Shown here: piece after piece, positions 162-24,899 of the stretch | Numbering within the stretch: position 1 is the first letter of the stretch | Layout: every line of letters starts with the position of its first letter | DNA from: Alphaproteobacteria bacterium | Lineage (GTDB): Bacteria; Pseudomonadota; Alphaproteobacteria; UBA828 | DNA length: 35,230 nt | Reading direction: 5' to 3' | Assembly (NCBI GenBank): GCA_963667785.2 | Contig: CAXXMU010000010.1 | Span: 1-35,230, forward strand | Program-made: the position numbers and the translations under genes | The notes under the pieces: generated by a model | What the model saw: only the letters and a program-made list of their open reading frames with translations | What the model was told of the DNA's origin: nothing | The model's database searches: none

Positions 162-1617
162 GTGCAAGCGCGGCAAAAACCAACAAAAATCACGCGGCCC
201 GGCTCCATCGTCCTCGGTCTCGTCCTCTCGCTCAGCGTCCTCGCCATGTCGCAGGTGTTCGCCGCCGAATCGGCCGAGGCGCGGTACGCCTCCATCGTCG
301 TCGACGCCGAGACCGGCGAGGTCCTGCGCTCGCGCAACGCCGACATACGCAGGTATCCGGCATCGCTCACCAAGATGATGACCCTCTATCTGCTCTTCGA
401 GGCGATCGACGAGGGGCGGCTCAGCCTCACCTCCAAGCTCAAGGTCTCGAAGCGGGCGGCCGGCCAGCCGCCGTCGAAGCTGGGCCTCGGCGCCGGCTCC
501 CACAATCGAGGTCGAGGACGCGATCAAGGCGCTGGTGGTCAAGTCGGCCAACGATATCGCGGTCGTGGTCGCCGAGGCGCTGGGAGGAACCGAGGTCGAG
601 TTCGCCCGGATGATGACGAGAAAGGCCCAGGCGCTCGGCATGTCCCGAACCACGTTCCGCAACGCGTCCGGCCTGCCCAACCGCAAGCAGCGCAGCACGG
701 CGCGCGACATGTCCTTTCTCGCGCGCGCGCTCATGCGGGAATTCCCCCACCGCTACCACTACTTCGACGACCAACGCTTCCGCTACGGCGGGCGGTCGCA
801 TCGCTCGCCGAACCGGCTGCTCGGCAGCTATCGCGGCATGGACGGCATAAAGACCGGCTACATCCGGGCGTCCGGCTTCAATCTCGCGGCGTCGGCGGAG
901 CGCGACGGCCGGCGTGTCGTCGCGGTGGTCTTCGGCGGCAAGACCGCGCGCTCGCGCAACAGGCACATGGCCACCCTTCTCGACCTCGGTTTCACGCGCA
1001 TCGCCGAGCGTGACGCCAAGCGCGGCCGTGTCCGTTATGCCGGCATCCCCCGCCCGCCCGCGGGCTCCGGCATGGCAGCGCCGGCTGCGCGCTTCAAGCC
1101 CGCGGCGATCATGGTTGCGGCGGTCGAGGCGGACGAACTGGCCGAAGGGGCTGCCGCGCCTCCGGCCGAACCGATGGTGACTGTCGAGGCGTTGGAGGCG
1201 GAGGTTGCCGCGGGCCCGCTGCCGCCGGAACTCGCGCCCGCAAAGCCGGAGACCGAGACGACGACGGTCGCGGCACTGACGGCTGCACCCGAAGCGCCGG
1301 CGTCGCCGAAGGCGTTCCGGGCGGACTCGGTGACCGCCCGCCCCTGGGGCGTCCAGGTCGGCGCCTACGAGTCGGTCACGTCAGCCCAAATCGCCATGCG
1401 CCGCGCGTCCGCGCGGGCGCCGCTGCTCGGTGACGCGATACCGACTCTCGTGCCCAGCAACGTGGGGGCCGGCACGCTCTATCGGGCGCGTTTCCTGGGG
1501 CTCTACAAGAGCGACGCCGTCAGGGCATGCCAGGCGCTTCGCCCCTCGCCCATGCCCTGCGTCATCATCCGCGGCCTCGATAAGGAACACGACCCCGCCA
1601 TCGCCGCCGCCTCCTGA
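162..1617 (+). CDS. D-alanyl-D-alanine carboxypeptidase (peptidase S11) with C-terminal SPOR domain; one +1 frameshift at ~499-501
   Basis: Signal/TM segment, SxxK (PASLTK), SxN (KSAND) and KTG (GIKTGY) motifs, an Ala/Pro/Glu linker and a SPOR domain (WGVQVGAY...LYRARFLG). Removing one C from CCC at 499-501 joins ORF 162.. to ORF 535..1617 as GAGSTIEVEDAIKALVVKSAND. Confidence 0.9.
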
Positions 1618-1645
1618 CGGGGCGGAGCGGCAGCCAGCCCCGCCG

Positions 1646-2047
1646 TCAGCCCTCTACTGGCTCGTCGGGGAGCGGCCGGGGGCGGCCGGCGTCGTCGATG
1701 GCGACGTAGATGAAAGTGCCCTCGGTCACCTTCGCCTCCGAGGGACCGCGCCGCCGCCGCGCCCAGGTCTCGATGGCGACGGTGATCGAGGTCGTCCCGG
1801 TCTTCGCGATCTCGGCATAGCAGGTCACGAGGTCGCCCACGGCGATGGGCGCGTGAAAGCGCATCGCCTCCACCGCCACCGTGGCCAGGCGCCCGCGCGC
1901 GCGCCGCGCCGCCACAACGCCGCCGGCGAGGTCCATCTGCGCCAGCACCCAGCCGCCGAAGATGTCGCCGTTGGGATTGGCGTCGGCGGGCATGGCGAGC
2001 GTGCGGAGCGCAGGCTCGGTTTGCGGCGGCCGTTCGGATTCGGTCAT
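1646..2047 (-). CDS. yciA: Acyl-CoA thioesterase (hotdog fold, YciA-like)
   Basis: MPADANPNGDIFGGWVLAQMDLAG motif typical of YciA-type thioesterases; 133 aa. Confidence 0.85.
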   Translation of the reverse strand: MTESERPPQTEPALRTLAMPADANPNGDIFGGWVLAQMDLAGGVVAARRARGRLATVAVEAMRFHAPIAVGDLVTCYAEIAKTGTTSITVAIETWARRRRGPSEAKVTEGTFIYVAIDDAGRPRPLPDEPVEG

Positions 2048-2060
2048 GGCGGACCCTTCT

Positions 2061-3092
2061 TCACTTGCCCTTGCGCCGGCTCTTCCGCCAGGCGCGGATG
2101 TAGGCCATGCAGTGCTGGTCGCGGCCTAGCAGCACGTCCTCGGCGAGCTTGTAGTCGGGGTCCGCGCGGTCGATGGCGAAAATCGCCTCCGGCGGGCTCG
2201 CCACCGGGTCCATGATGCCGCCGTCGGCGCCGGCGTCCACCGCCAGCAGCACGAACGTCTCGTTGAGCAGCTTCCGCGCCGGCAACCCGAAGGAGACGTT
2301 GCTCATGCCGCCCGTGATGTGGATCTCGCTGCCGAAACGCTCCCGCAAGGCGCGGATCGCATCGAAGCAGTGATGGCCGAACGTGGAATCGACCGAGATG
2401 GGGAAGACCAGAGGGTCGACGTAGAGGTCGCCCAGCGCGAAGCCCCTGACGAGCGCCGCTTCCACCATGCGCGTCGCGTTCGCCACCCGCTCGTCCGCGC
2501 CGTTCGGCATGCCGCGTTCGCCGGCGGCGGTCACCACCACGCGGCAGTCGTGCTCCCGCGCGAGGTCGAGGGCATCCTGGCGCTCCAGCGAGGCGGAGTT
2601 GAGCATCGGGCGCGTCTTGGCGGGCGCGATCGCCTCCAGCCCTGCGCGGATCACGTCCACGCTGGAGGAATCGATGGAGAGCGGGAGCGCGGTCTTCTCC
2701 TGCACCGTCGCCGCGAGCCAGGCCATGGCGCCGGTCTGCACGCCGAGCTTGGGCGACATCTCGTCGACGTTGAGGTCGAGAAAGGCCGCGCCCGCCCGCT
2801 CCTGATGGCGGACGAGCGCCTCAATGTAGCGCATCCCCTCGGCAGGGTCGCCCGCCGCCGTCTCCATCGCCGTCTCGATCGCGACATGGACGTGCTTGAC
2901 CCGGCCCTCCTCGTAGTCCTTGGTCCGCTTGGCCTCTTCGGTGACGGGCAGCGCACGCTCCTCGCCGTCTGCCGTCTCGTAGAGGATGACTTCCACCCCG
3001 TCGCGCTCCGCGATGCGCTTGCCCTTGCGCAGCGCCACGCGGGTGCAGTGGATGTTCTCGCCAATGACGATGAGCGTTGGCGGGGCAGTCAT
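2061..3092 (-). CDS. Pterin-binding methyltetrahydrofolate:corrinoid methyltransferase (AcsE/MeTr-like)
   Basis: Starts MTAPPTLIVIGENIH, with the ATG overlapping the upstream TGA (ATGA). Motifs FLDLNVD, LSIDSS, MLNSAS, LYVDPLVFP and GGMSNVSFGLP of the DHPS-like TIM barrel of AcsE and the MetH folate domain; 343 aa. Confidence 0.88.
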   Translation of the reverse strand: MTAPPTLIVIGENIHCTRVALRKGKRIAERDGVEVILYETADGEERALPVTEEAKRTKDYEEGRVKHVHVAIETAMETAAGDPAEGMRYIEALVRHQERAGAAFLDLNVDEMSPKLGVQTGAMAWLAATVQEKTALPLSIDSSSVDVIRAGLEAIAPAKTRPMLNSASLERQDALDLAREHDCRVVVTAAGERGMPNGADERVANATRMVEAALVRGFALGDLYVDPLVFPISVDSTFGHHCFDAIRALRERFGSEIHITGGMSNVSFGLPARKLLNETFVLLAVDAGADGGIMDPVASPPEAIFAIDRADPDYKLAEDVLLGRDQHCMAYIRAWRKSRRKGK

Positions 3093-5080
3093 GCGGTCCC
3101 TTCCGGCACGAGGTGCGATGGCATCGGCTTGAACTGGCAGCCGTCCACGAAGAGGTCGAAGAAATCCGGCGTGGTCTCGAGCTCGATATGCTCGATGGCC
3201 TGGACTTCGCGCTCCAGCGCCCGGCGCCGAGTCCCCGAAAGCAGGATCGCCCGCGCGCCCCGCGCCGCCGCGTTGCCAGCCTTGACCGCGCGCTCTTCCG
3301 GCACCGGCGCCAGCAGGCCGATGGACTGAGCGTTCCGCACGTTCACGTAGTTGGCGAAGCCGCCCGCGAGGTAGAGCCGCTCGACTGCGGCCGGATCGAC
3401 GCCGAGCGCGCGCATGACGATGTACTGCCCGCAGTAGTTGGCGGCCTTCGCCTGGCCGAGGTTGCTGGCGTCCTCCTTGGAGAAGGTGATGCCGTGCTCG
3501 GGCACCACGGTCGTCTCCATCTGCTTGCGGTCGGCGGCAAAGACGCCCTTGGCCGTGAGCACGTCGCCCCGTCTCAGCTCCGCCAGCAGGTCGATCAGGC
3601 CGGAGCCGCAGAGGCCCGTGGGCTCCCCGCCGCCGATGGTCTCGTAGGCGGCCGTGCCGTCCGCGCCGAGCCGCACCGTCTCGATGGCGCCGTCGCAGGC
3701 CGGCATGCCGTAGCGCACCAGCCCGCCTTCGAACGCGGGCCCCGCCGGGCATGAGGCGGCGAGCATGCGGCCCCGGTGCTTGAGCACGACCTCGGTGTTA
3801 GTGCCCATGTCCACGAGCATCGCCGTCTCGGCGTCCGCGAACCCTTGCTCCAGCGCCACCAGGGCGGCGGCGGCATCGCCGCCGACATGGCTCGCGATCA
3901 GCGGCAGGCCATAGACCCGCGCTTCGCGGTTCGCGCGGAGGCCGAGGCGGCGCGCGAGCGCCTGGACCGCCGTGTTCGCCCGCTCGCCCGCGAGGAAGGC
4001 ATGCTCGATGGACGACTTGTAGGGCTTCTGGCCGATGCCCTGCACGTCGAGCTTGAACAGGATGTCGCGCATGGTGGGATTCGCCGCGACCACGATCTCG
4101 TAGATCGTCTCGCGGCCGAGCCCCAAACGGGCGCAGCCGTCCACGACGGCGCGGCTGATGGCCGAGGCGGCAGCCTTCTGCAGCTCGCCCGCCTTGTCGT
4201 CCCGGTCGTAGGAGATGCGGTGCATCACGTCGCTGCCGCCAAAGGCCTGCGGGTTTTCAAAGGCCGCGCTGTGCACGCTCTTGCCGGTCTCCAGATCGAC
4301 GAAGTCGAGCACCACCGTCGTGGTGCCGAGATCGACCGCGAGGCCCAGCATGTGGCCGCGGTAGCGGTCCACCACGGCGCCGTCGTAGAGCACGTCGTCG
4401 CCCCGCCGCATGACGAGGGGGTCGAGGGTCCGGGGCGCGCCCGCCGCTTCCGCATGGGCGCGCACCAGGATGCGCGGGCGGCGGCGGAGCGGCGCGAAGG
4501 CCACGTCGATGTCGTCGCGCTCGACCAGCGCCTGGCAGGCGAGGCGGTAGGGGGGCCGCAGGAAGCCCTCGGCCTCCGTGCGCGCCGAGAGCGCGCCCTC
4601 GCCTGCGCTCACCTCGACCACGCATTCGTGGCAGCGGCCGTTGCGCAGGCACGAGGTCGGCACCTCGACGGCAAGCTCGTCGGCGCAGTCGAAAAGCGTC
4701 ATGCCGATGGCGAGCGGCTCGGTCTTGCCGTCGTGGGAGACCGTGCCGGGCCCGGCCGGCAGCGCTTCGCCTTCGCGCCGCGCCGCGGCATCCCGCTTGA
4801 CGCGGTCGAGCTGCTCGCGCGCGCGATCGCGGGTGGCGGGATCGCTCTCCCACGCCAGGCTGTAGTCGAAGGTGCCGTCGTGGCCGCAGGTGGCGAGCTC
4901 GTCCTTCGCCGCTGCGGCGATCTGGTTGGCGCAGGAGAAGGCGGCGGTGCAGCGGTCGCGCGCATCGCGGTAGGGGCAGCGCTGCGTCGCCTGCGCGTCG
5001 GCGTGGCTCACGATGTCCGAGAAGATCTCGGTGAGCCGGTCGAGCCGCTTCTGGTAGTCCTGCTGGCTGATCTTCGGCAA
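3089..5080 (-). CDS. ASKHA-domain ATP-dependent reductive activator of corrinoid proteins (RACo/DUF4445 type) with 2Fe-2S domain and extra N-terminal Cys-rich domain
   Basis: 2Fe-2S motif (CLRNGRCHEC...RLACQ) and ASKHA motifs DLGTTT, VDMGTNTE, AGPAFEGG, GLCGSG and LAGGFANY; TTG start. Confidence 0.9.
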   Translation of the reverse strand: MPKISQQDYQKRLDRLTEIFSDIVSHADAQATQRCPYRDARDRCTAAFSCANQIAAAAKDELATCGHDGTFDYSLAWESDPATRDRAREQLDRVKRDAAARREGEALPAGPGTVSHDGKTEPLAIGMTLFDCADELAVEVPTSCLRNGRCHECVVEVSAGEGALSARTEAEGFLRPPYRLACQALVERDDIDVAFAPLRRRPRILVRAHAEAAGAPRTLDPLVMRRGDDVLYDGAVVDRYRGHMLGLAVDLGTTTVVLDFVDLETGKSVHSAAFENPQAFGGSDVMHRISYDRDDKAGELQKAAASAISRAVVDGCARLGLGRETIYEIVVAANPTMRDILFKLDVQGIGQKPYKSSIEHAFLAGERANTAVQALARRLGLRANREARVYGLPLIASHVGGDAAAALVALEQGFADAETAMLVDMGTNTEVVLKHRGRMLAASCPAGPAFEGGLVRYGMPACDGAIETVRLGADGTAAYETIGGGEPTGLCGSGLIDLLAELRRGDVLTAKGVFAADRKQMETTVVPEHGITFSKEDASNLGQAKAANYCGQYIVMRALGVDPAAVERLYLAGGFANYVNVRNAQSIGLLAPVPEERAVKAGNAAARGARAILLSGTRRRALEREVQAIEHIELETTPDFFDLFVDGCQFKPMPSHLVPEGTA

Positions 5081-5089
5081 CGGCTTCGC

Positions 5090-5839
5090 CTAACCGCGCT
5101 CTTCCATCAGCCTCTTGGCGAGCGTCACGCAGGAGAGCGCGTCCTTGCCGTAGCCGTCCGCGCCCATGTCGTCGGCGAACTCTTGCGTTACCGGCGCGCC
5201 GCCGACCATCACCATCACGTCGTCGCGGAGGTCCGCGTCGATCAGCGCCTCGATGGTCTTGCCCATGTTCGGCATCGTCGTGGTCAGCAGCGCCGACATG
5301 CCCATGATCGGCGCCTCGTGCTCCTCCAGCGCCGCGATGAACTCGTCCTCGGAGGTATCGACGCCGAGGTCGACCACGTCGAAGCCCGCGCCGGAGAGCA
5401 TCATGATGCAGAGGTTCTTGCCGATATCGTGGAGGTCGCCCTTGACCGTGCCCATGATGACGGTGCCGATGGGCTCGACGCCCGAGGCGGAGAGAATCGG
5501 CTCTATGTGGGCCATGCCCGCCTTCATCGCCCGCGCGCACGCCAGCACCTCGGGCACGAAGATGAAGTTCTCGCGGAACTTGATGCCGACGATGCCCATG
5601 CCGGCGATGAGCCCGTCGTCCATGATCTCCAGCGCCTCGGTGCCCTGCTCCAGCGCCTTGACGGTAAGCGCGTCCACCGTGTGATTGTCGCCCTCGATCA
5701 GGGCCGCTGCGATGTCCTGCATCTCGGGCCGCATGCGGGCGAAGAGCGCCACGTTGCGCTCGATCTCGTCCGGACGCTCGAGAAACTCCTCGATCTCGTC
5801 GCGGATCACCTCGTTGGCGATGTCGGAAAGCACGGCCAT
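5090..5839 (-). CDS. Cobalamin-binding corrinoid protein (MtbC/MttC-like)
   Basis: Cap domain (F.PEVL.CARAMK) and B12-binding motif GTVKGDLHDIGKN...SALLTTT...VGGAPVT. Confidence 0.93.
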   Translation of the reverse strand: MAVLSDIANEVIRDEIEEFLERPDEIERNVALFARMRPEMQDIAAALIEGDNHTVDALTVKALEQGTEALEIMDDGLIAGMGIVGIKFRENFIFVPEVLACARAMKAGMAHIEPILSASGVEPIGTVIMGTVKGDLHDIGKNLCIMMLSGAGFDVVDLGVDTSEDEFIAALEEHEAPIMGMSALLTTTMPNMGKTIEALIDADLRDDVMVMVGGAPVTQEFADDMGADGYGKDALSCVTLAKRLMEERG

Positions 5840-5879
5840 GGGGAACTCGGGTCTAGGGGCGCAGGAGTGTCACGCGGCT

Positions 5880-6923
5880 CTAGTGCGTGCGACCGTGCTC
5901 GGCATGCCAGTCGCGCACCGCGAGCGGAATCTCGCGCAGGTTCTCGACCGAGGTCTGCAGCGGAATGGCGCATTCCGGCCCGACTCCCTGCACGCCGGCG
6001 TCCAGGTTGGCGTAGACCTCCTTGCGCACGTCCTCCGGCCCCTTGGCGAACAGCGTCTCGGGATTGTTGATGTTGCCGACCAGCGATACCCGTTCGTCCA
6101 TCGCCGCCATGGACTCGGACGGTGCGTTCTTGGAATCGAAGTGGAAGGCGGCGATCCCGGTCTCGGCGATATAGCCCATGCGGTCCACGGTGCGCCCGCA
6201 GATGTGCAGGATGAGGGGCACCGGAAGGCGCTCCACGAACTCGATGTGGAGGTCCCTGAGGAAGCGCTTGTAGTAGTCGGCGCTCACCAGGTCGCCCGTG
6301 GCGTGGTCGGGGACAGTGAGCGCGTCGGCGCCCGCCTCGATCTGGGCAAGACCGAAGACGATCGTCGCCTCCTTCATGCGGTCGAGCGCGAGCTTGGTCT
6401 TGCCCGGATCGTCCAGCGACATGAGCAGGAAGGGCTCGACCCCGAAGCAGTGATAGCCGAGCGTCCACGGCCCCATGGTCTTGCCGATGATCGCCACCTC
6501 GTCGCCGAACTCGCGGCGCAGCAGGCGGATCGCCTCGATCACGCAGGCCATGTCCGGGTGCAGCAGGAAATCGTTGGGGATGCGGATGTCGTCCACGTCC
6601 TCCCAGATCGGCTCGCGCATGCGCACGGTCGGCCAGTTGTCCTTCTGCTCCCACTGCATCTTGCAGCCGAGCGCAGACGATTCCTGGATGATGGAGAACA
6701 CCGGCATGATGCTGTCGAAGCCGAGCTCGGTGTAGCTGGTAGCGGCGAGCCGCGCCATCAGCGCGGGGTCGCGGTTGGCCAGTGGGAAGTTGGCGTCCAC
6801 CAGGTCCATCAGCTCGACCGTGGCCACCGAGGTGGGATTGCACACGGGCGTGCGATCCACCGGCTCGCGGGCCAGCGCCGCAAGCACCCGCTCGCGGCTG
6901 GTCATCGAAGGCAATGCCGTCAT
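5880..6923 (-). CDS. MtaA/CmuA-family methyltransferase (URO-D fold, Zn-binding)
   Basis: N-terminus MTSRERVLAAL.REPVDRTPV, GPWTL, Zn ligands H-x-C (ILHICG) and distal Cys (GPECAIP), GNINNP; 347 aa. Confidence 0.88.
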   Translation of the reverse strand: MTALPSMTSRERVLAALAREPVDRTPVCNPTSVATVELMDLVDANFPLANRDPALMARLAATSYTELGFDSIMPVFSIIQESSALGCKMQWEQKDNWPTVRMREPIWEDVDDIRIPNDFLLHPDMACVIEAIRLLRREFGDEVAIIGKTMGPWTLGYHCFGVEPFLLMSLDDPGKTKLALDRMKEATIVFGLAQIEAGADALTVPDHATGDLVSADYYKRFLRDLHIEFVERLPVPLILHICGRTVDRMGYIAETGIAAFHFDSKNAPSESMAAMDERVSLVGNINNPETLFAKGPEDVRKEVYANLDAGVQGVGPECAIPLQTSVENLREIPLAVRDWHAEHGRTH

Positions 6924-6941
6924 CGCTTCCGCTCCCGACCC

Positions 6942-7595
6942 TCAGGTCTGCTGTTGCGCGCTCGGCGCGGCGAGGACGCCCCGCGCCGCAGCGGCCTCCG
7001 CCTCGCGCATGGCGGCGCGGACGTTGAGCGCCCGGCCGAGCAGGAGGCCCACCAGCTCGTCATGGGCCGTGCCGCAGGCGAAGCGGGCCTCGCCCGGCTC
7101 CGCGCCCGGCTCCATCTCGGCGAGCTTGACGAGCCCGCGCGTGACGCTGTCCACGCGCCGCGCCACCTTGTCGTCCCCCTCGCCGGCGTCGGCTGCAAGC
7201 CGGTAGGCGCCGCCGCCGATGCCAGTCGCGCCGATGGTGAGATCGTTCTTCTTGTCGTAGATGCTCATGGGCAGCGCCGCGACCTCGGCTCCCGGCGCCT
7301 TCTTGCAGGCTTCGAGGAAGAGCCGCTTCACCGCCGCCCGGTGTTCTTCGCCGCAGGCGAAGGCGAGGCGCCCCGGCTGGCCCGGCGCCGGCACCATGCC
7401 GCCCATCACGGCCATTGCCCGCATCACGAACGCCAGCCGCCCGGCGGTGTCCTCCTTCCCGCTGTAGCTGTGCGCGAGATAGCCCGAGGCGCCGCCCTCT
7501 CCCGTGCTGCGGTAGAGGGAGATGCTGATGTCGTGGAAGTGCGGGTCCATGGAGACAAGCTCCACCCGCTCCCCGAGGTCCAACAGGCGGCCCAT
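6942..7595 (-). CDS. Hypothetical protein with internal duplication (two FACGxxH motifs); first gene of the corrinoid operon
   Basis: 217-aa ORF with ATG, purine-rich RBS and GC3-rich codon usage, ending 18 nt before the MtaA-like gene. No family recognised. Confidence 0.75.
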   Translation of the reverse strand: MGRLLDLGERVELVSMDPHFHDISISLYRSTGEGGASGYLAHSYSGKEDTAGRLAFVMRAMAVMGGMVPAPGQPGRLAFACGEEHRAAVKRLFLEACKKAPGAEVAALPMSIYDKKNDLTIGATGIGGGAYRLAADAGEGDDKVARRVDSVTRGLVKLAEMEPGAEPGEARFACGTAHDELVGLLLGRALNVRAAMREAEAAAARGVLAAPSAQQQT

Positions 7596-7704
7596 CGCCC
7601 CCTCGCTGCGCCGGCCCGGTCCCTACCGGGCCTCCCGATATCCCGGCCAGAATTTCAGATAGGGCGAAGGGAAACAAGGCCACAGCCCCGAAAAGAGTTG
7701 TGGA

Positions 7705-8685
7705 CTACCCCCAGAGCGCGGGCTCGGGCGGGTCCATTTCCGCGCCGTCGTAGACGAGCCCCGGCGTGCGGTCGCGGGCCAGCAGCAGGGGGCCGTCGAG
7801 ATCGACGTACTCGGCAAAGCCCGCGAGCAGCGCCGCCGGCGCCATGGCGAGCGAGGTGCCGACCATGCTGCCTACCATGATGCGAAAGCCCATGGCTTGC
7901 GCCTCCCTGGCCAGGGCCAGCGCCTCCGTCAGCCCCCCGGTCTTGTCCAGCTTGATGTTGACCATGGGATAGCGGCCGGCGAGACGCGGCAGGTCGGCGC
8001 GCGTGTGGCAGCTCTCGTCGGCGCAGACGGAAAGCGACAGACGGCGGCCTTCGAGCGCCTCGTCGTCCGCCGCCGGCAGCGGCTGCTCCACCATCTCGAC
8101 CCCGAGCGCGGCGAGGGCCGGCAGCAGCTCGTCCAGCATCGGCAGCGACCAGCCCTCGTTTGCATCCACGATCAGCCGGGCTCCGGGCGCGTTCTCGCGA
8201 ACGGCACGGATGCGTTCCGCGTCGCCCTCGCCGGTGACCTTGAGCTTGAGCAGGGGGAGGTGGGCGTGCCGGGCCGCGGCCGTGCCCATGTTCTCCGGCG
8301 TATCCAGGCTGAGAGTCACCGCGGTGACGCATGGCTTCGGCGCCGCGAGCCCCGCCAGCGCCCAGGCCGGCCGGGCCGCCTGCTTCGCTTCGAGATCCCA
8401 GAGCGCGCAGTCGAGCGCGTTGCGGGCGGCGCCCGGCGGCAGCGCCTCCAGCAGGCCCTCGCGTCCGAGCCCGCCTTCCACGGCGTCCCGCACGCTCTCG
8501 ATCTCCGCCCGCGTTCCCTCCGGCGTCTCGTCGTAGCGGGGATAGGGGACGGCCTCGCCCCGGCCGGTGCAGGCGCCGTCTGCGACCTCGGCGACGACGA
8601 CGTGCGCCTCGGTCTTGGCGCCGCGGGAGATGCGGAAGGCGCTCGCCAGCGGCCAGGTTTCGAGGCGAACGGCAAGCCGCCTCAC
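7705..8685 (-). CDS. dgcA: N-acetyl-D-glutamate racemase / dipeptide epimerase (enolase superfamily)
   Basis: FRISRGAKT, GEAVPY, KLK catalytic motif, metal ligands DANE, EQP and ADES, NIKLDKTGG, DLDGP; adjacent to a DUF1611 gene. Confidence 0.85.
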   Translation of the reverse strand: MRRLAVRLETWPLASAFRISRGAKTEAHVVVAEVADGACTGRGEAVPYPRYDETPEGTRAEIESVRDAVEGGLGREGLLEALPPGAARNALDCALWDLEAKQAARPAWALAGLAAPKPCVTAVTLSLDTPENMGTAAARHAHLPLLKLKVTGEGDAERIRAVRENAPGARLIVDANEGWSLPMLDELLPALAALGVEMVEQPLPAADDEALEGRRLSLSVCADESCHTRADLPRLAGRYPMVNIKLDKTGGLTEALALAREAQAMGFRIMVGSMVGTSLAMAPAALLAGFAEYVDLDGPLLLARDRTPGLVYDGAEMDPPEPALWG

Positions 8686-8697
8686 GAGGCCCGGCCT

Positions 8698-9708
8698 CTA
8701 CAGTACGCGGTCGGCGATGGGGCCCGTGCCGGTGCGAATGGGATCAACGCAGGGGAGCCCGTGGGCCGCGCCGAGCTCATCCAGCAGCGCCGCGGCCTCC
8801 GCGTCGCCCAGCGCCTCGGTGTTGACGCAGATGCCCGCGCAAATGACATCCGGATTGGTGAGCCGCGCCGCCTGCAGGTTGGCCTCGATGCTCTCGCCGA
8901 GCGCCGGCAACGGCCAGTGCGGCAGGCCGCGCATGTTGGTCCGCGTCGGCTCGTGGCAGACCACGATGGCGTCCGGCTGGGCGCCGTGGATCAGGCCGAG
9001 TGTCACGCCCGCGTAGGAGGGGTGGTGGAGCGAGCCCTGCCCCTCGACGAGGTCCCAATGCTCCGGGTCGTTCTCGGGCGTGAGCCACTCGGTGGCGCCG
9101 GAGATGAAGTCCGCCACCACCGCATCGACGGAGACCCCGCGGCCGGCGACGAAGATGCCGGTCTGCCCGGTCGCGCGGAAGGTGCAGGGGACGCCGCGGC
9201 GGCGCCACTCGGCCTCCAGCGCAAGCGTGGCGTACATCTTGCCGACCGAGGCGTCGGTGCCCACCGTGAGCAGGCGCTTGCCGGCTCGTTTCACGCCCGA
9301 GCCCACCTTGAACTCCTGCGACGGGTGGCGGACGTCGAAGAGGTGCCGGCCGTTCGCCTCGGCGGCGTCCCGCACCGCCGGCAGGTCGCTGAGCCGCACG
9401 TGCAGACCGCTGGCCACGTCGAGGCCCGCGTCGAGCGCCGCCACGAGGGTCTCGATCCAGCTCTCGCTGACCACGCCGCCCGCGTTGGCGACGCCCACGA
9501 TGAGGCTCTTGGCGCCCTTGGCCGCCGCTTCCTCCACCGTCATCTCGGGCAGGTCGAGGCGGGGCTTGCAGCCCGGCAGCCTGATCTGGCCGAGGCACCA
9601 CTCCGGGCGGAAGACGAACACGCCGCGCGCGGTCTTGGCGGCGAGCGCGTCGCGCGCATCGCCGAGGAAGAGCAGATAGGGCGGGTCGATCTGCGGGCGC
9701 TCGCTCAT
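8698..9708 (-). CDS. dgcN: DUF1611-family protein, D-glutamate N-acetyltransferase DgcN
   Basis: Starts MSERPQIDPPYLLFLGDA after an AGGAGG RBS. AAKTA, VGTDASVGKM, ATGQTG and EGQGSL.HP motifs of DUF1611; paired with dgcA. Confidence 0.85.
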   Translation of the reverse strand: MSERPQIDPPYLLFLGDARDALAAKTARGVFVFRPEWCLGQIRLPGCKPRLDLPEMTVEEAAAKGAKSLIVGVANAGGVVSESWIETLVAALDAGLDVASGLHVRLSDLPAVRDAAEANGRHLFDVRHPSQEFKVGSGVKRAGKRLLTVGTDASVGKMYATLALEAEWRRRGVPCTFRATGQTGIFVAGRGVSVDAVVADFISGATEWLTPENDPEHWDLVEGQGSLHHPSYAGVTLGLIHGAQPDAIVVCHEPTRTNMRGLPHWPLPALGESIEANLQAARLTNPDVICAGICVNTEALGDAEAAALLDELGAAHGLPCVDPIRTGTGPIADRVL

Positions 9709-9785
9709 GCCGCCTCCTTCGCGATTTCGGCGCCGAGTCTGGCGAATAGCACCGGATGCCGCAAGGAAGGGCGGCGGAAGCGCGA

Positions 9786-10169
9786 TCAGACCAGCGGGTT
9801 CTCGTCGGTCATGTAGATGGTGACGCGCTTGAAGCGGCCGTCCTCGACCTGGAAGAAGTTGCAGTTGCGCATCTCCACGTGGCGGCCGTCGTCGTAGTCG
9901 TTGCGAGCGACGAACTGCGACGCGATCCACTGGCGCTCCACGTCGACGACGTGCGTGAAGTCGCCGTGATAGATGATCTTGGTCGCGCCCATGAAGTCGC
10001 GGAACATGCGCCTGACCTGGTCGTGGCCGGTGTGGCTCACGTGCGCCGACTGGATGCGGAGCTCGGCGTCCTCCGCGAAGCACGCGACCGCGGGCTCCAG
10101 GTTCTTGTTGTCGACGTTGTGAAAGTAGGCGTCCTCGACGAGTGCAATCAGTTCCGCGCGGGTGAGCAT
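9786..10169 (-). CDS. SnoaL-like / NTF2-family protein
   Basis: MLTRAELIALVEDAYF...FAEDA...G.DQVRRMF...FQVEDGRFKRVTIY pattern typical of the SnoaL-like fold; 127 aa. Confidence 0.75.
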   Translation of the reverse strand: MLTRAELIALVEDAYFHNVDNKNLEPAVACFAEDAELRIQSAHVSHTGHDQVRRMFRDFMGATKIIYHGDFTHVVDVERQWIASQFVARNDYDDGRHVEMRNCNFFQVEDGRFKRVTIYMTDENPLV

Positions 10170-10328
10170 GGGCGTCCGTCCGTCCGTGGGGTGAAGGGGC
10201 GCCGACTGTAGCCGAGGGGCCTGCCTTTGCAACCGCTGCCGGGCCGGCGGTAGGCTGAGGGCCGCTCACGCGATTGGAGACGCCGTGTCGACCACCATGC
10301 GGCTACGAGTGGCCACCGCGAGGCGCGC

Positions 10329-11439
10329 ATGCGGGTATTGATCTGCGGTGGCGGCGTGATCGGCACGTCGATCGCCTATTTCCTCAGCCGGCGCGGCATC
10401 GCGTGCACTGTGATCGAGCGCACCGGCATCGCCAATGCGGCCTCCGGCAAGTCGGGCGGGTTCCTCGCGCTGGACTGGTGCGACGGCTCGCCGGTCGAGG
10501 CGCTGGCGCGCCGCAGCTTTGCGCTCCACGCGGAGCTTGCCGAGCGCATCGACGACGAGTGGGGGTACCGCAGGCTCGACACGCTCGGCGTCGTGAGCAG
10601 CGCGCGGCGCGACGTGGGTTTCTGCCGCAAGCTCGCGGCGCCGGACTGGCTCGCAGGCAGCGCGGCGGTCCACGCCAGGCTCGGCACTGCGGAGTCCACG
10701 GCGCAGCTCGATCCCGCCGCCTTCACCGGCGCCATAATGCGGGCGGCGCTCGCCCAGGGCGCGCGCATGACCATCGGCACCGTGAGCGGCGTGGTGCAAG
10801 GGGCCGACGGCGCCGTGCGGGGCGCCGTGGTGGACGGACACGAGATGGCGGGCGATGCCCTCGTCATCGCCATGGGCCCCTGGTCGGTGCTCGCGAGCAA
10901 CTGGCTGCCGCTGCCGGCGGTCTACGGCCTCAAGGGCCACAGCCTGGTCTTCCGCTACGCGCCGGAGCCCGCGCCCCACGCGCTCTTCGTGGAGCTGGAG
11001 ACCGAGGGCGGCACCATCGCCTCGCCCGAGGTCATGCCGCGGCCCGACGGCACCACCTACGTCTGCGGCCTCTCCAGCGAGCAGCCGCTGCCGGTGGACC
11101 CCGCCGCAGTCGTGCCGGACGAGGGCGGCTGCGACAGGCTCCGCGCGATGACGGCGCAGTTCGCGCCGGCGCTGGGCAGCGCCGAGGTGCTGGCCGAGCA
11201 GGCCTGCTACCGCCCCGTGGTCGAGGACGGGCTGCCGCTCATCGGTGCCGTTCCGGGGCGCAGCAGGCGCCTACGTGGCGACCGCCCACTCGGTCTGGGG
11301 GATGCTGAACGGCCCGGCCACGGGCGAGGCGGTCGCGGAGCTGATCGCCGATGGCGAGACCAGCACCGTCGACCTCGCGCCCTTCGATCCCGCACGCCTC
11401 GCGCCGCTCGCCGCCGGCGCCGTGCGGGTGGAGGTGTGA
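10329..11439 (+). CDS. FAD-dependent oxidoreductase, DAO (D-amino acid/glycine oxidase) family; one +1 frameshift at ~11255-11258
   Basis: GGGVIG Rossmann motif, ASGKSGG, ACYRP...DGLPLIG. Removing one G from GGGG at 11255-11258 continues as AYVATAHSVWGMLNGPATGE...LAPFDPARL to the TGA at 11437-11439. Confidence 0.85.
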
Positions 11440-11656: not shown

Positions 11657-13221
11657 ATGATGCGTGACGTGCTCGTCGGCATGGATGCAGGGACATCGGT
11701 GCTGAAGGCGGTGGCATTCACGCGCGCCGGAGACCAGCTCGCGGTAGCGGCGCGCCCGAACCACTATCGCACCGGCGCGGACGGCGCGGCGGAGCAGGAC
11801 ATGGCCTGGACCTGGGAGGAGGCGGCCGGGACCCTGCGCGACCTGGTCTCCGGCGCGCCCGAGATCCGCGATCGCGTCTCGGCTCTGGCGGTGACCGGCC
11901 AGGGCGACGGCACGTGGCTCATCGATGCCGGCGGCGACCCGGTCGGCCCCGCCTGGCTCTGGCTCGACAGCCGCGCGGCGGACGAGACCCGTGCGGTGTG
12001 CGAGGGGGTGGACTACGGCGCCCTGTACGAGACCACCGGCACCGGCGCGGCGCCCTGCCAGCAGTCGAGCCAGCTCGCCTGGATGGCCCGGCACACCCCG
12101 GATGTCCTCGCGCGGGCCGCCACCGCGTTCCACTGCAAGGACTGGCTCTACTTCAAGCTTACGGGGCAGCGGGCGACGGACCCGTCCGAAGGCGTCTTCA
12201 CCTTCGGCGACTTCCGCACGCGCCGTTATGCCGCGGGGCTGCTCGAGCAGTTCGGGCTCGCCGCACATGCCGGCTGCTGCCCGCCATCGTGGACGGCACG
12301 CGGCAATCGCACCCGCTCGACGCGGCGGCCGCGGCCGAGATCGGACTGCCGGCCGGTCTGCCGGTGGTGCTCGGCTACCTCGACGTCCTCTGCACCGCGC
12401 TCGGCGGCGGACTCTACGATCCCGAGGGCCGGGCCGGTCTGTCGGTCATCGGCTCGACCGGGGTGCACATGCGTTACACGACTGGTGCCGCATCGGTGCG
12501 GCTCAGTCCCGAGCGCACCGGCTACACGCTGTGCTTCCCTGTCCCCGATGCCTACGTGCAGCTGCACTCGAACATGGCGGCGACGCTCAACATCGACTGG
12601 CTGCTCGACCTCAAGCGCGAGGTCCTCGCCGAGGCGGGCGTGGACAAGAGCCGTGCCGATCTGCTGCCGCGCATCGACGCGCTTGCCCTGGCCGCCGATG
12701 CCGGGCGGGCGCTCTATCACCCCTACATCTCGACCGCCGGCGAGCGCGGACCGTTTCTCGCGTCGGAGGCCCGGGCAAGCTTCACCGGGCTCGATTCGAA
12801 CGCCGGCCTCGCGGAGCTCACGCGCGCGGTGCTGGAGGGCCTCGCGTTCGCGGCGCGGGACTGCTACGCCGCCATGGGCGACATCCCGGTGGAAGTGCGT
12901 CTGGCCGGCGGCGCGGCGCGCTCCGAAGCGATGCGCTGCATCCTCGCCAGCGTGCTGAACCGCCCGGTGCGCGGCGTCGATCGCGAGGAGGCGGGAGCCG
13001 CGGGGGTGGCGATGATCGCGGCCGTGCAGCAGGGCCTCTACGCCGACATGGCGGCCTGCGCCGCCGACTGGGTCACGCCCTGCCTCGCCGACGCGCAGCC
13101 GCCGGATCCTGCGCTCGCCACGGTCTACGAGCGGCTGTTCCCGCTCTATGTCCGCACGCGCACTGCGCTCGCGCCGCTCTGGGGCCCGCTTGCCGACGCA
13201 GGCGGGGGAGCGGGCCGATGA
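11657..13221 (+). CDS. eryA: FGGY-family carbohydrate kinase, erythritol kinase-like; one missing base at ~12270
   Basis: GMDAGTSVLKAVAF, AVTGQGDGTWL, WLDSRA, HCKDWLY, GSTGVHM, GERGPF and LAGGAARS motifs of EryA-type kinases. Adding one C at 12270-12271 joins the two ORFs. Confidence 0.8.
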
Positions 13222-14258: not shown

Positions 14259-14337
14259 TCGGCGGCAGGCATGGTTGCGACGAGCCGGGCGAGGTGAGCG
14301 TGAACGACGCGGCCACCCGCGGGATCACTGAATTCAG

Positions 14338-15870
14338 ATGGGCGTGAGCGGTTCGGCATCGCGCACGGTCGACCTTCTCGTCATCGGCGGCGGCATCAAC
14401 GGTTGCGGCATCGCCCGGGACGCGGCGGGACGCGGCGTCCGCGTGCTGCTGTGCGAGCAGGACGACCTGGCCGCGCACACGTCCTCGGCCAGCACCAAGC
14501 TGATCCACGGCGGGCTGCGGTACCTGGAGCAGCGCGACTTCCGCCTCGTGCGACACGCGCTCCGCGAGCGCGCGGTGCTGCTGCGGAACGCCCCGCACAT
14601 CATCTGGCCGCTGCGCTTCGTGCTGCCGCATCACGCGGGGCTGCGCCCCCGGTGGATGATCCGGCTCGGTCTCTTTCTCTACGACCGTCTCGGCCCGCGC
14701 GGCCCGCTGCCGTCGTCAGCCAGCATCGACCTCGGCCGGCACGCGAGCGGGCGTGCGCTGCAGGGCCGCTATCGCCGAGCCTTCGAGTACTCGGACTGCT
14801 GGGTGCAGGATTCGCGGCTGGTGGTGCTCAACGCCCGCGATGCCCACGCGAGGGGTGCGGAAATCCGCACCCGCACCGCGTGCGTCTCGCTCGCGCGGGA
14901 TGGCGTACGCTGGAGGGCGGTCCTTGCCAACCGGCTATCGGGCGCGCGCGTCACCGTCGAAGCGCAGGCCGTCGTCAACGCGAGCGGCCCCTGGGTCGGC
15001 CAGATCCGCTCGCTCGCAGGCGGCGGCGGGGCGACGCACGGGGTGAGGCTCGTCAAGGGAAGCCACATCGTGGTGCCGAGGCTCTTCGACCACGATCACC
15101 CCTACATCTTCCAGACCGGCGACGGCCGCGTGCTGTTCGCGCTCCCCTACGAGGAGGACTACACCCTGCTGGGGACGACCGATGTCGAGTTCGCGGGCGC
15201 GCCCGGCCGGGTCGAGATCGCGCCCGAGGAGGTCGACTACATCTGCGCCGCCGCCAACGCCTACTTCGAGACCCCCGTCGCCCCGCGCGACGTGGTGTGG
15301 AGCTACGCCGGCATCCGGCCGCTGTTCGACGACCATGCCGAAAACGCGAGCGAGGTCACGCGCGACTACGTGCTGAACCTCGACCGGGCTCCGGCGCCGA
15401 TGCTCTCGGTCTATGGCGGCAAGATCACGACCTACCGCAGGCTCGCCGAGCAGGCGGTGGACCTGCTGGCGGGGTCTCTTCGCGCCGACGGGCCGCACTG
15501 GACCGCCGGCGCGCCTCTCCCCGGCGGCGACATTCCGGGCGCGGACATCGGCGCGTTCACCGCGCAGTGCGCCGCGCGCTATTCGTGGCTGCCGGAGCGG
15601 CTTCTCCGTCACTACGTCCGCCACTACGGCTCGGACATCCATGCCGTGCTCACGGGCTGCAACGGCGTCGAAGACCTGGGCGAGCATTTTGGGGCCGGGC
15701 TCCATGCGGCCGAAGTCGCTTTTCTGGTGGAGCAAGAATGGGCGCGCACCGCAGACGACATCCTGTGGCGGCGCACCCGCAAGGGTCTCGGCGTCTCCGC
15801 CGAGGGCGCCGAGCGATTGCGCGCGTACCTCCAGGTCACGGGCATCGAAAACTGCCGGGAACGCCGATGA
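14338..15870 (+). CDS. glpD: FAD-dependent glycerol-3-phosphate / polyol-phosphate dehydrogenase (GlpD/EryB family)
   Basis: IGGGINGCGIARDAAGRG, TSSASTKLIHGGLRYLE, GSHIVVP, GGKITTYRRLAE and DILWRRT motifs. Confidence 0.88.
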   Translation: MGVSGSASRTVDLLVIGGGINGCGIARDAAGRGVRVLLCEQDDLAAHTSSASTKLIHGGLRYLEQRDFRLVRHALRERAVLLRNAPHIIWPLRFVLPHHAGLRPRWMIRLGLFLYDRLGPRGPLPSSASIDLGRHASGRALQGRYRRAFEYSDCWVQDSRLVVLNARDAHARGAEIRTRTACVSLARDGVRWRAVLANRLSGARVTVEAQAVVNASGPWVGQIRSLAGGGGATHGVRLVKGSHIVVPRLFDHDHPYIFQTGDGRVLFALPYEEDYTLLGTTDVEFAGAPGRVEIAPEEVDYICAAANAYFETPVAPRDVVWSYAGIRPLFDDHAENASEVTRDYVLNLDRAPAPMLSVYGGKITTYRRLAEQAVDLLAGSLRADGPHWTAGAPLPGGDIPGADIGAFTAQCAARYSWLPERLLRHYVRHYGSDIHAVLTGCNGVEDLGEHFGAGLHAAEVAFLVEQEWARTADDILWRRTRKGLGVSAEGAERLRAYLQVTGIENCRERR

Positions 15871-17335: not shown

Positions 17336-17431
17336 AATAGTAATCGGTTGCCTCCGCGGGCGCGGCCAAGCGCGGCGGCCGTGCGATCTGCCGGTCGCGG
17401 GCGCGGTGTGCCCGATGTGCTATGGTGAGCC

Positions 17432-18622
17432 ATGACCCGCTCCGGCGCCCGCGACGTGGCGCTCCTTGCCGCCTGCCAGGCGCTCTTCCTCACCTCGATG
17501 GCAGCGGTGGTGGCCGCGGCCGCCCTGGTCGGGCACGGCCTCGCCGATACAAAGGTGCTGGCGACGCTCCCCATCGGCATCCAGTTCGTGATGACGATGG
17601 TGGCGACCGTGCCGGCATCGCTTCTCATGAAGCGCATCGGGCGGCGCGACGGCTTCACCGTGGGTGCCAGCATCGGGCTCGTCGGCGCGCTGCTCGGCTT
17701 CTGGGCGATCATGGAGGGGAGCTTCACTCTCTTCTGCGTGGCGCTTGCGCTGATCGGCGCGGCCAACGGCTTCGCCCAGTACTACCGTTTCGCTGCGGCG
17801 GACGCGGCGAGCGAGGCCTTCAGGAGCCGCGCGATCTCGCTGGTGCTGGCGGGCGGCGTGATCGCTTCGGTCGGCCCCCTACTCGCCGACTGGTCCAAGG
17901 ACCTGTTCGCGCCGATCGCCTTCGCGGGCGTCTTCACCACCATGGCCGCGCTCTACGTGGCCACGCTGGTGGTGCTGCGCTTCATCACAATCCCGCCGCC
18001 GGACGCGGAGGAGCGCAGCAAGGGGGGCCGGCCGCTGCTCACGATCATGCGCCAGCCGACGTTCATCATCGCCGTCCTGGGCTCTCTCGTCGGCTACGCG
18101 ATGATGTCGCTGCTTATGACCGCGACGCCGCTCGCCATGAAGTTCCACGGCTTTGGCTTCTCCGATTCGGCGCAGACGATCCAGTGGCACGTGCTCGGCA
18201 TGTTCGCGCCCGCCTTCGTCACCGGCCATCTGATCAGGCGTTTCGGCACGAAGACGATCATGGCGTGCGGCGCGCTGCTGATCGGGCTCTGCGCCGCGAC
18301 CAACCTGCAGGGCATCGCGCTGCTCAACTTCCACGTCGCCCTGGTCCTGCTGGGCGTCGGCTGGAACTTCCTCTTCACCGGCGGCACGACACTCATAACC
18401 GAGATTCACAGCCCGGCGGAGAAGGCGAAGACTCAGGCCGCGCACGACTTCACCGTGTTCACCGGTGTCGCGGCGGCGGCGCTGCTCTCCGGCGCGCTGC
18501 ACGAGGCCGTGGGCTGGCAGACGATGAACTACGCCGTGCTGCCGTTCCTTGCCATCGTGCTGGCGGGGCTCGCCTGGCTCGGGCTCAGCGGCCGCCGCGC
18601 CGCGGCGACGGCGGCGGAGTGA
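17432..18622 (+). CDS. MFS transporter (RfnT-like)
   Basis: About 12 hydrophobic segments; MKRIGRRDGF motif A-like, YYRFAAAD, TPLAM, IQWHVLGMFAP and GWNFLF motifs. Confidence 0.85.
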   Translation: MTRSGARDVALLAACQALFLTSMAAVVAAAALVGHGLADTKVLATLPIGIQFVMTMVATVPASLLMKRIGRRDGFTVGASIGLVGALLGFWAIMEGSFTLFCVALALIGAANGFAQYYRFAAADAASEAFRSRAISLVLAGGVIASVGPLLADWSKDLFAPIAFAGVFTTMAALYVATLVVLRFITIPPPDAEERSKGGRPLLTIMRQPTFIIAVLGSLVGYAMMSLLMTATPLAMKFHGFGFSDSAQTIQWHVLGMFAPAFVTGHLIRRFGTKTIMACGALLIGLCAATNLQGIALLNFHVALVLLGVGWNFLFTGGTTLITEIHSPAEKAKTQAAHDFTVFTGVAAAALLSGALHEAVGWQTMNYAVLPFLAIVLAGLAWLGLSGRRAAATAAE

Positions 18623-18647
18623 CGCCCCGGCCGCCGACTACAGGAGT

Positions 18648-18893
18648 CTAACCACCGCCGATGCGGGGCAGGAAGCAGACCTCGCTCTCAGGCGCCACCG
18701 GGGCGAACAGGTCGTCCTGATGGATCTGGCCGTCGACGGCGACGGCCATGCCCTCCTCCAGCTCGCGCCCGATGCCCGCATAGCGGGCGTCGAGCGCGCG
18801 GATCACGCCGCGAATGTCGCTCGCCTCGACCTCGAGCTCCTTCACCCCGCCGGTGTAGCGGGCGAGGCTCGAGGGCAGGACGACCTGCGCCAA
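18648..18893 (-). CDS. MoaD/ThiS-family sulfur carrier
   Basis: 81-aa ubiquitin-like protein ending LPRIGGG; TTG start 5 nt after the molybdoprotein stop. Confidence 0.8.
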   Translation of the reverse strand: MAQVVLPSSLARYTGGVKELEVEASDIRGVIRALDARYAGIGRELEEGMAVAVDGQIHQDDLFAPVAPESEVCFLPRIGGG

Positions 18894-18898
18894 GGCGC

Positions 18899-21202: not shown

Positions 21203-21205
21203 GGG

Positions 21206-21682
21206 TTATTCTCCTCTCAGCTCGGCCGCCGTCGTCATCACGGCGCGGATGATCTTGTCGTAGCCGGTGCAGCGGCAGAGATTGCCGGCCAGCCAGTAGC
21301 GTGCCTCGGTCTCCGTCGGATTGGGGTTCTCCTCCAGGAGCGCCTTGGCGGCGACCAGGAAGCCCGGCGTGCAGACGCCGCACTGCAGCGCCGCGTCCTC
21401 CAGGAACTGGCGCTGCAGCGGGTGCAGCGTCTCGCCCTCCGCCATGCCTTCGATGGTGCCGATCTCGCGGCCCTCGGCCTCGGTGCCGAGCATGAGGCAG
21501 GAGCAGACGAGGGTGCCGTCCACGGTCACGCTGCAGGCGCCGCAGTCGCCGGTGGCGCAGCCTTCCTTCGTGCCGGTGAGCTCGAGCTCGTCGCGCAGCA
21601 CGTCGAGGAGGGTCTGCTCGCCCGAGCAGAGGAACTCCGTCGGCTCGCCGTTGATGCTGGTGGTGACATGATACTTGGCCAT
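21206..21682 (-). CDS. Xanthine dehydrogenase-family 2Fe-2S (small) subunit
   Basis: Starts [12 protein letters not shown] with a TGATG overlap. GTKEGCATGDCGAC, QCGVCTPG and GNLCRCTGY motifs. Confidence 0.93.
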   Translation of the reverse strand: MAKYHVTTSINGEPTEFLCSGEQTLLDVLRDELELTGTKEGCATGDCGACSVTVDGTLVCSCLMLGTEAEGREIGTIEGMAEGETLHPLQRQFLEDAALQCGVCTPGFLVAAKALLEENPNPTETEARYWLAGNLCRCTGYDKIIRAVMTTAAELRGE

Positions 21683-22554: not shown

Positions 22555-22732
22555 GTGCGAGGGGTTCCTCCTGTTGGCGCAGCACCGTGTTGGCGCCCTC
22601 TTTTACCCGAAAAGCCCGGAAGGTTCACAGGGGCAAAATGGCCGCGCACATCGCTGTTACACAAGGCGCGCGCGGCGTGGCACTATCCGGGTGCGCGACG
22701 CTGCGAGCGCCGGAGAGTGGGAGCCCAGCGCC

Positions 22733-24877: not shown

Positions 24878-24899
24878 CGCCTCTCCCTCTCCGGCGGCA

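Follow-up and report, generated by a model that had tools for sequence, protein, structure and literature searches.

Introduction

Corrinoid-dependent methyl transfer with ATP-dependent reactivation has long been held to be a trait of strict anaerobes. One such hub in aerobes, found in Ruegeria pomeroyi and Phaeobacter inhibens and known as MtgB-C-D-E or split MetH with RamA, is described in the accessible text of two roseobacter studies (2018 and 2025; PMC5764234, PMC12478193). Here we describe a second, distinct aerobic corrinoid system, a methyl-transfer operon on the minus strand of contig CAXXMU010000010.1 (positions 1646 to 7595) in the assembly GCA_963667785.2 of an alphaproteobacterium. 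The window, that is, the whole stretch analysed, is the entire 35,230-bp contig (C10) of a 4.09-Mb bin with 70% GC, an estimated completeness of 98% and an estimated contamination of 6.6%.

Several described systems resemble this operon in part. With the roseobacter hub, as far as the accessible text of these studies goes, it shares a stand-alone corrinoid protein, a pterin enzyme, an activase and aerobic hosts, and variants of the locus also have the stand-alone PF02574 protein of that hub, with delivery of the methyl group to tetrahydrofolate (THF) or homocysteine. The CmuA/CmuB pair of Methylorubrum extorquens CM4 (pCMU01) is likewise aerobic and alphaproteobacterial, and combines a first methyltransferase (MT I) of the MtaA fold carrying the zinc motif with a corrinoid domain and a pterin-dependent second methyltransferase (MT II) that directs the methyl group to THF. 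MtaA (4AY7/4AY8), MtbA and MtsA have the same fold and family, the same zinc ligands and a separate corrinoid protein with the DxHxxG motif. The O-demethylase and Cdm systems of D. hafniense and A. dehalogenans, in the available portion of PMC13222342, combine MT I, a corrinoid protein, MT II and RACo in the same way, with an MT II of the same family, and a role in methyl-sulfur or methyl-selenium metabolism is proposed in the accessible part of PMC10418091 for type 1 mlp clusters, to which the dimethylselenide (Sdm) system of Methanococcus voltae belongs.

A preliminary description of this stretch regarded the operon as an undescribed module, and our literature search, the supplements of the cited papers lying outside it, found no description. 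The accessible part of PMC11264602 gives annotation-level counts only, and according to that of PMC6548844 the aerobic dimethyl sulfide (DMS) methyltransferase is still to be identified. The module is apparently a widespread, undescribed variant of the corrinoid methyl-transfer systems, in which both the obligate partner protein and one domain of the activase are new.

Results

The operon consists of six co-oriented minus-strand open reading frames (ORFs). In operon order they encode a protein of 217 aa belonging to no Pfam or NCBIfam family and referred to here as hyp217 (6942-7595), an MtaA-like zinc corrinoid methyltransferase of 347 aa (5880-6923), a corrinoid protein of 249 aa (5090-5839), a RACo-type reductive activase of 663 aa (3089-5080) whose N-terminal 110 residues or so (4751-5080) form an additional four-Cys domain, a pterin-binding MT II of 343 aa related to AcsE and CmuB (2061-3092), and a YciA-like acyl-CoA thioesterase of 133 aa (1646-2047). 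The gaps between them are 18, 40, 9, -4 and 13 nt; the start of the pterin methyltransferase gene, which is an internal start of a longer ORF (2061-3752), overlaps the RACo stop by 4 nt. All six frames display the GC3-high, GC2-low codon-position pattern of genuine genes in 70% GC DNA. The reading frames and the codon-position pattern together bear out the gene set, positions and spacing given in the preliminary description.

A scan with one genome per species recovered 69 related loci, every one from a metagenome-assembled genome (MAG), a single cell or an otherwise uncultured record. Besides Alphaproteobacteria, the labels of these records include Bryobacterales, Vicinamibacterales, Acidimicrobiia, Poribacteria, Planctomycetota, Latescibacterota, Gemmatimonadota and Chloroflexota, and the module is thus not specific to Alphaproteobacteria. 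The order hyp217, MtaA-like enzyme, corrinoid protein, four-Cys domain and RACo is conserved in at least eight phylum-level groups. The counts that follow include only loci with enough flanking DNA, hence their varying denominators. The hyp217 gene lies immediately upstream of the MtaA-like gene and co-oriented with it in 58/66 loci, and somewhere in the locus in 62/66; downstream of the MtaA-like gene we find the corrinoid protein in 64/66, the four-Cys domain in 58/65 and RACo in 46/62. A pterin methyltransferase is present in 33 of 58 loci, and in 11 of 58 its place behind RACo is taken by a PF02574 homocysteine S-methyltransferase (in Acidobacteriota, Planctomycetota and other groups); the two occur together in a single locus, L023. 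Just 6 of 57 loci, all from close relatives, carry the thioesterase. The conserved unit is thus five genes with a strongly conserved order, and the six-gene unit proposed earlier has to be reduced by the thioesterase, a lineage-specific neighbour.

The second methyltransferase is the variable element of this arrangement. In 5/5 PF02574-variant genomes examined, the sole pterin-binding match is the Fol domain of a full-length MetH, at 30-33% identity and within frames of 1182-1284 aa. Among 11 genomes whose loci showed neither second methyltransferase, seven encode the pterin enzyme's orthologue away from the module (55-58% identity) and four have MetH alone. Among the neighbours of the module, a D-2-hydroxyacid dehydrogenase is found near 15 loci, ten of these proteins forming one orthologous group (49-92% identity, three phyla), LarA-like racemases near four and CobW-like GTPases near three; the own genome has no close orthologue of the main dehydrogenase group (best identity 40%). 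We take these neighbours as weak hints of context.

The product of 5880-6923 matches URO-D (PF01208) at E 3e-64 and the MtaA/CmuA model TIGR01463 at 244.3 bits against a cut-off of 235.4 (243.9 in the genome search), which places it in that family. It falls short of the MtaA and MtbA equivalogs NF040654 and NF041608, with 221.9 bits against 400 and 187.8 against 600. Methanosarcina mazei MtaA (4AY7) matches its residues 1-338 at E 1.3e-51, and H240, C242 and C318 line up with the H-x-C...C zinc ligands of that structure. In an alignment that left out L018 and L073 with their in-frame stops, none of these three residues varies among the 27 relatives. The family assignment and the intact zinc ligands reported earlier are therefore upheld. 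As to the two sequences set aside, there is one stop in L018:2401-3441 and two in L073:7310-8314, which may reflect pseudogenes or assembly errors.

Within the PDB and NCBIfam collections the protein matches MtaA/MtbA-type enzymes, then HemE, and nothing else. The HemE model (TIGR01464) gives 63.3 bits against a cut-off of 302.95, so that by this model the enzyme is not HemE, and the uroporphyrinogen decarboxylase alternative raised in the preliminary description finds no support in it. A weaker, separate URO-D-type match on contig C5 (56 bits with TIGR01463) may be the HemE of the haem pathway. Across relatives from different phyla the MtaA-like protein is 76-98% identical, with a mean column identity of 82%. 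Between phyla it retains 76-83% identity and the corrinoid protein 69-84%, against 42-65% for hyp217, RACo and the pterin enzyme of the same loci. A plasmid collection contained no member of the MtaA-like clade, its best match being 27% identical.

No Pfam or NCBIfam family covers hyp217, and Pfam matches up to E 1 gave nothing consistent in 29 of 29 aligned members. The protein is a tandem duplication of an alpha/beta module of about 100 aa. Its halves match each other at E 1e-5, with their F-x-C-G-x-x-H motifs in register and a CGxxH(D) signature in each half, and C81, H85, C174 and H178 are near-invariant; a metal site may be guessed at. The AlphaFold (AF2) model is confident (pLDDT 90.5). 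Foldseek of this model against the PDB gave no match at E<=1e-3, and in a wide structure search (VIA) the best Z of 6.6, with KipI/urea-carboxylase-like and HIT-like halves, lies inside the stated noise.

A profile search of 1.84 billion representatives returned 311 hyp217 matches, none of them an informative fusion, and the lack of fused hyp217 among longer proteins is weak evidence in itself. One 345-aa representative that joins the N-terminal half of hyp217 to the start of URO-D is probably a read-through and was rejected as a fusion; in L057 a stop codon separates hyp217 from the MtaA-like gene. Among 301 sampled Alphaproteobacteria, the profiles of hyp217 and of the MtaA-like clade match the same six genomes, and the two genes are adjacent in each. 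With a small sample of related genomes, this co-occurrence is an association and not a statistical result. Synteny and co-occurrence suggest that the MtaA-like enzyme has hyp217 as its obligate partner and may be bound by it.

The corrinoid protein has a B12-binding Rossmann domain (PF02310) and a cap domain (PF02607) and matches 1Y80 at E 1.3e-60 with DLHDIG in the alignment, in accord with the DxHxxG motif noted earlier. The pterin enzyme matches Pterin_bind (PF00809, E 1e-19) and PRK07535 (199 bits); its closest solved structure is the O-demethylase MT II of D. hafniense (4O0Q, E 3.7e-30), followed by AcsE/MeTr at about 1e-27, and its description as an AcsE-like THF methyltransferase holds, though 4O0Q is closer. 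RACo carries the three domains expected of such an activase, namely Fer2 (PF00111), middle (PF17651) and C-terminal ASKHA (PF14574), and has an AcsV-like match of 264 bits. The activator assignment therefore stands, and what it had missed is the N-terminal four-Cys domain. The cysteines C35, C44, C50 and C65 of its first 110 residues are invariant in the alignment, and in 22 loci the domain is a stand-alone ORF of about 80-110 aa. It has no Pfam family and is missing from the genome's MttB-associated RamA; its AF2 model is moderate (pLDDT 75.8, pTM 0.36), too uncertain for a structure search.

Besides a full MetH, the genome encodes one MetF and another three proteins with PF02574. On contig C6 it carries a separate hub of MttB, RamA, a pterin methyltransferase and a corrinoid protein, with MttB genes on both C6 and C2. 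Compared with this hub, the module's components are 54% (corrinoid protein), 34% (pterin enzyme) and 30% (activase against RamA) identical. As had been claimed, the operon's contig has no MttB or PF02574 match, the genome's copies lying on other contigs, and the module brings its own corrinoid protein, activase and pterin enzyme. It is an extra, dedicated system independent of MetH and the MttB hub, which agrees with its earlier characterization as self-contained.

A haem-copper oxidase is encoded in the genome, and sponge metagenomes from several studies contain 25-43% of the sampled words of the stretch; the host is an oxygen-respiring, sponge-associated bacterium. CobN was not found in the genome, nor were homologues of CobH, CobI, CobJ and CobL (tblastn), while CobT was found. 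Because of these absences the organism, which has at least seven B12-binding proteins, may salvage corrinoids instead of making the ring.

Upstream on the same strand lie the D-glutamate catabolism genes dgcA (7705-8685, N-acetyl-D-glutamate racemase, 485 bits against a cut-off of 400) and dgcN (8698 to about 9700, 517 bits against 480), with 109 nt between dgcA and the operon. This interval holds a terminator-like hairpin (7675-7690, minus strand), the sole such site in 1400-8000; shuffled sequence averages 2.0, and the hairpin is weak on its own. A promoter scan around the operon found no sigma-70-like sites. The thioesterase at the operon's distal end is assigned by 4HBT (PF03061) and by NF007970 (145 bits, below its cut-off of 162).

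Contig C6 carries a second copy, 86% identical in DNA, of the whole interval between the thioesterase and dgcN, the duplication thus taking in both dgc genes, which stand beside the operon in close relatives only. Most of the window has copies 75-90% identical in DNA spread across C1, C2 and C6, with 82-90% identity for much of what lies outside this interval; the window stretches with copies in the bin are 1662-9774, 9786-11429, 14333-15830, 17380-22647, 22707-27879 and 34417-35230. The nearest public genomes (L005-L008, L061, L068) share the arrangement of the window and not that of C6. C10 may stem from a related strain binned together with this genome, or it may be an island made up of duplicated segments; the identity of the genes is unaffected. 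A further sign of duplication comes from the 2-hydroxyacid dehydrogenase, for which C3:3557-4342 and C13:10671-11456 have equal tblastn scores, suggesting duplicated or redundant contigs in the bin.

Farther along the contig, an FGGY-family sugar kinase at 11657-13221 (plus strand) appears split into an N-domain ORF (11657-12958) and a C-domain ORF (11914-13221), which a frameshift, decay into a pseudogene or an error in sequencing could explain. The plus-strand interval 22457-27882 encodes a B12-dependent methylmalonyl-CoA mutase and a MeaB GTPase, separated by an ABC exporter gene, and its copy on C1 is 89% identical. Positions 28355-35230 hold a sugar ABC transporter (Peripla_BP_4), a long frame with two GFO/IDH/MocA oxidoreductase domains, an aldolase of the HpcH/HpaI type and a TPP enzyme; this group of genes has the look of inositol or sugar-acid catabolism, lies 20 kb from the operon and is unlinked to it in relatives.

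Discussion

What does the module transfer, and in which direction? With moderate confidence we favour the explanation that the MtaA-like enzyme and hyp217 form the donor side of a five-component module, which would pass on the methyl of a donor X-CH3 to folate or homocysteine. The pair is placed on the donor side because it stays constant while the second enzyme is of either the folate or the homocysteine type. The PF02574-variant genomes have no stand-alone pterin enzyme, and therefore only the MtaA-like enzyme and hyp217 are left to load the corrinoid protein. There is a parallel for such an exchangeable output: the accessible text on the Ruegeria MtgBCDE hub gives THF and homocysteine as alternative acceptors (PMC12478193). 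In the proposed mechanism the MtaA-like zinc enzyme with hyp217 would act as MT I, transferring the methyl group of X-CH3 to the Co(I) form of the operon's own corrinoid protein, from which the pterin-binding MT II would pass it to THF; the resulting methyl-THF would be oxidised via MetF or consumed by MetH. RACo, fused to the four-Cys domain, would reduce Co(II) back to Co(I) at the expense of ATP and a reductant. Joined in other phyla to a homocysteine S-methyltransferase, this core would use X-CH3 to make methionine directly. Within this scheme we infer the direction of transfer, the role of hyp217 and the nature of X.

Energetics narrow the choice of donor. Taking the Mtr reaction as an analogue, moving a methyl group off a thioether and onto a pterin costs about 30 kJ/mol. 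If the methyl group flows to THF, X-CH3 should therefore be a better donor than a simple thioether, and for the folate variant a methyl halide, a sulfonium or an O-methyl compound is more likely than DMS, methanethiol or methylmercaptopropionate (MMPA). By the same analogy a thioether donor would fit only the homocysteine-accepting variant or the reverse direction. Of the exchange between thioethers and THF suggested in the preliminary description, these two cases fit, and the uphill route from thioether to THF is disfavoured. The zinc motif itself does not force a thiol substrate, because CmuA, the MT I for methyl halides, keeps the H-x-C...C positions. Within the donor-side explanation, methyl halides and sulfonium compounds such as dimethylsulfoniopropionate (DMSP) or S-methylmethionine are by rough estimate equally tentative candidates, O-methyl hydroxy-acids or sugars seem slightly less probable than either, and other donors make up the rest.

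Several observations weigh against a donor-side role. The substrate is not readable from sequence, and the nearest characterised relatives (MtaA, E 1.3e-51; MtbA, by hidden Markov model) methylate a thiol and thus work on the acceptor side. The neighbour genes offer no consistent catabolic context. Three complete relatives combine the pterin variant with MetX and MetF and are without MetH, PF02574 or canonical MetE, which fits the biosynthetic direction. The corrinoid protein of the PF02574 variant might be loaded in trans by the Fol domain of MetH, although we consider this unlikely. Searches of the own 98%-complete genome gave neither an SBP56 methanethiol oxidase nor a member of the CDO family, an absence that counts weakly, and against the DMS or MMPA routes only. 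On the favourable side, contigs about 90% identical to the window in four metatranscriptomic libraries cover every operon gene, and one of 981 nt bridges the junction of the MtaA-like gene and hyp217; such contigs can contain DNA and give neither strand nor level, and are no more than consistent with expression.

Some of these points lead to a possible, if doubtful, alternative on the acceptor side, in which the pterin enzyme would draw on methyl-THF to load the corrinoid protein, and a thiol would be methylated by the MtaA-like enzyme together with hyp217. Were the thiol homocysteine, the module would be a split, RACo-reactivated methionine synthase with the MtaA fold replacing PF02574, as the preliminary description had also considered; otherwise it would make another thioether, or methylate sulfide or selenide. 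The close characterised relatives are all zinc-dependent thiol methylases, and transfer from methyl-THF to a thiol is energetically favoured, at about -30 kJ/mol for the Mtr reaction. A RamA-type ATP-dependent activase serving a split MetH in aerobic Alphaproteobacteria provides a precedent in the accessible parts of PMC5764234 and PMC12478193. The three MetH-less relatives, G311, G312 and G313, are complete chromosomes and also speak for the methionine synthase idea: beside the module they encode MetF and a MetX-like protein (459-466 bits), have neither MetH above the cut-off nor PF02574, and possess only a single-domain Meth_synt_2 protein (117-122 bits).

That last protein also provides an objection, as this core-MetE-like protein could make methionine in the three genomes. 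In G311 it is a 346-aa single-domain protein at G311:C1:833920-834906 (L097:3397-4437), with counterparts in G312 and G313; DUF1852 was not found beside it in the G311 locus (the flanks of the counterparts were partly scanned). It is a possible non-canonical methionine synthase, and these organisms could obtain methionine via the module, via this protein or by import. Against the methionine synthase idea, and against acceptor-side transfer generally, stand the PF02574-variant genomes, which without a stand-alone pterin methyltransferase would have no methyl donor for the corrinoid protein. In L023, where PF02574 and the pterin enzyme accompany the pair, an MtaA-like enzyme methylating homocysteine would be redundant. 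The own genome has a full MetH, as do 8 of the 13 module-bearing alphaproteobacterial genomes (two of the eight as two pieces), the other five being below the cut-off. Two further MetH-less genomes have other routes at hand, G155 a canonical MetE and stand-alone PF02574 proteins and G300 a stand-alone PF02574 protein.

It is far less probable that the module is an aerobic aryl methyl ether O-demethylase acting on methoxylated aromatics. Such systems have the identical four-part architecture of MT I, corrinoid protein, MT II and activating enzyme, and the best solved relative of our pterin enzyme, 4O0Q, belongs to one of them. The methyltransferase argues otherwise: the PDB and NCBIfam matches of the module's MT I are of the MtaA/MtbA type, then HemE, only. 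An invariant zinc site and an obligate partner are, to our knowledge, not features of the O-demethylase MT I enzymes, and no aromatic-catabolism genes recur near the module. In the available text of PMC10418091, OdmB and VdmB share about 17% identity with an MtaA/MtbA-like protein and form a separate branch. Finally, a haem decarboxylase in a chance neighbourhood or assembly artefact, an idea that could draw on the URO-D fold and on a window that is a whole 35-kb contig, mostly duplicated within a bin of 6.6% contamination, is next to impossible given the HemE score of 63 bits against 303, the other URO-D-type match on C5, the hyp217 co-occurrence in 6/6 genomes and the same gene order in 69 independent records, a conserved synteny that contradicts it.

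To return to the donor-side explanation, its consequences depend on what X is. The module brings two new components, hyp217 and the four-Cys domain, and two outputs, folate and homocysteine, and many uncultured lineages that abound in sponges, seawater and soil carry it. Identification of the donor would add a route in marine or soil one-carbon, sulfur or halogen cycling and give a function to the hyp217 family; should the donor prove to be a methyl halide, the module would be a long-sought cmu-independent sink. Under the methionine synthase alternative, hyp217 would be a new metalloprotein subunit. It is possible, though we think it somewhat unlikely, that the MtaA-like enzyme and the Cys/His-bearing hyp217 are either a new two-subunit methyltransferase, which in uncultured aerobes of oceans, sponges and soils would channel an abundant environmental donor into folate or directly into methionine, or a new class of RACo-reactivated methionine synthase.

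Comparison with known systems

How far does the module depart from the systems that it resembles? From MtaA, MtbA and MtsA it differs in scoring below the equivalog cut-offs, in its aerobic host, in its coupling to folate or homocysteine instead of methanogenesis, and in the pairing of the enzyme with a 217-aa protein not known from methanogens. The type 1 mlp clusters, as presented in the accessible part of PMC10418091, contain two to three Mlp paralogues (Mlp2 and Mlp3 among them), lack a folate methyltransferase and are confined to obligate anaerobes, whereas the module, found in aerobes, has only one MtaA-like gene, accompanied by hyp217 and a methyltransferase for folate or homocysteine. 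In the O-demethylase and Cdm systems the MT I (OdmB, VdmB, MtoB, CdmB) appears to belong to another URO-D branch, which is not among the PDB matches of the module's protein, and the available portion of PMC13222342 describes no partner protein.

The comparison with the aerobic systems is closer. CmuA is a fused protein of 617 aa, whereas the module encodes the methyltransferase and the corrinoid protein in separate genes with a 40-nt gap, and the methyltransferase parts are 24%, the corrinoid parts 32% identical; the contrast with CmuA drawn in the preliminary description is thereby substantiated. By annotation only, the 18.8-kb cmu stretch has neither a RACo-type (ASKHA) protein nor a hypothetical protein of the size of hyp217. 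None of the six operon proteins contains an MttB-family (PF06253) or DUF1638 domain, and it is here that the module parts from the MtgBCDE hub: in the accessible text of PMC12478193 and PMC5764234, the donor enzyme of that hub is of the MttB family, acts on glycine betaine and goes together with DUF1638, whereas in the module an MtaA-fold enzyme and hyp217 would fill the corresponding place.

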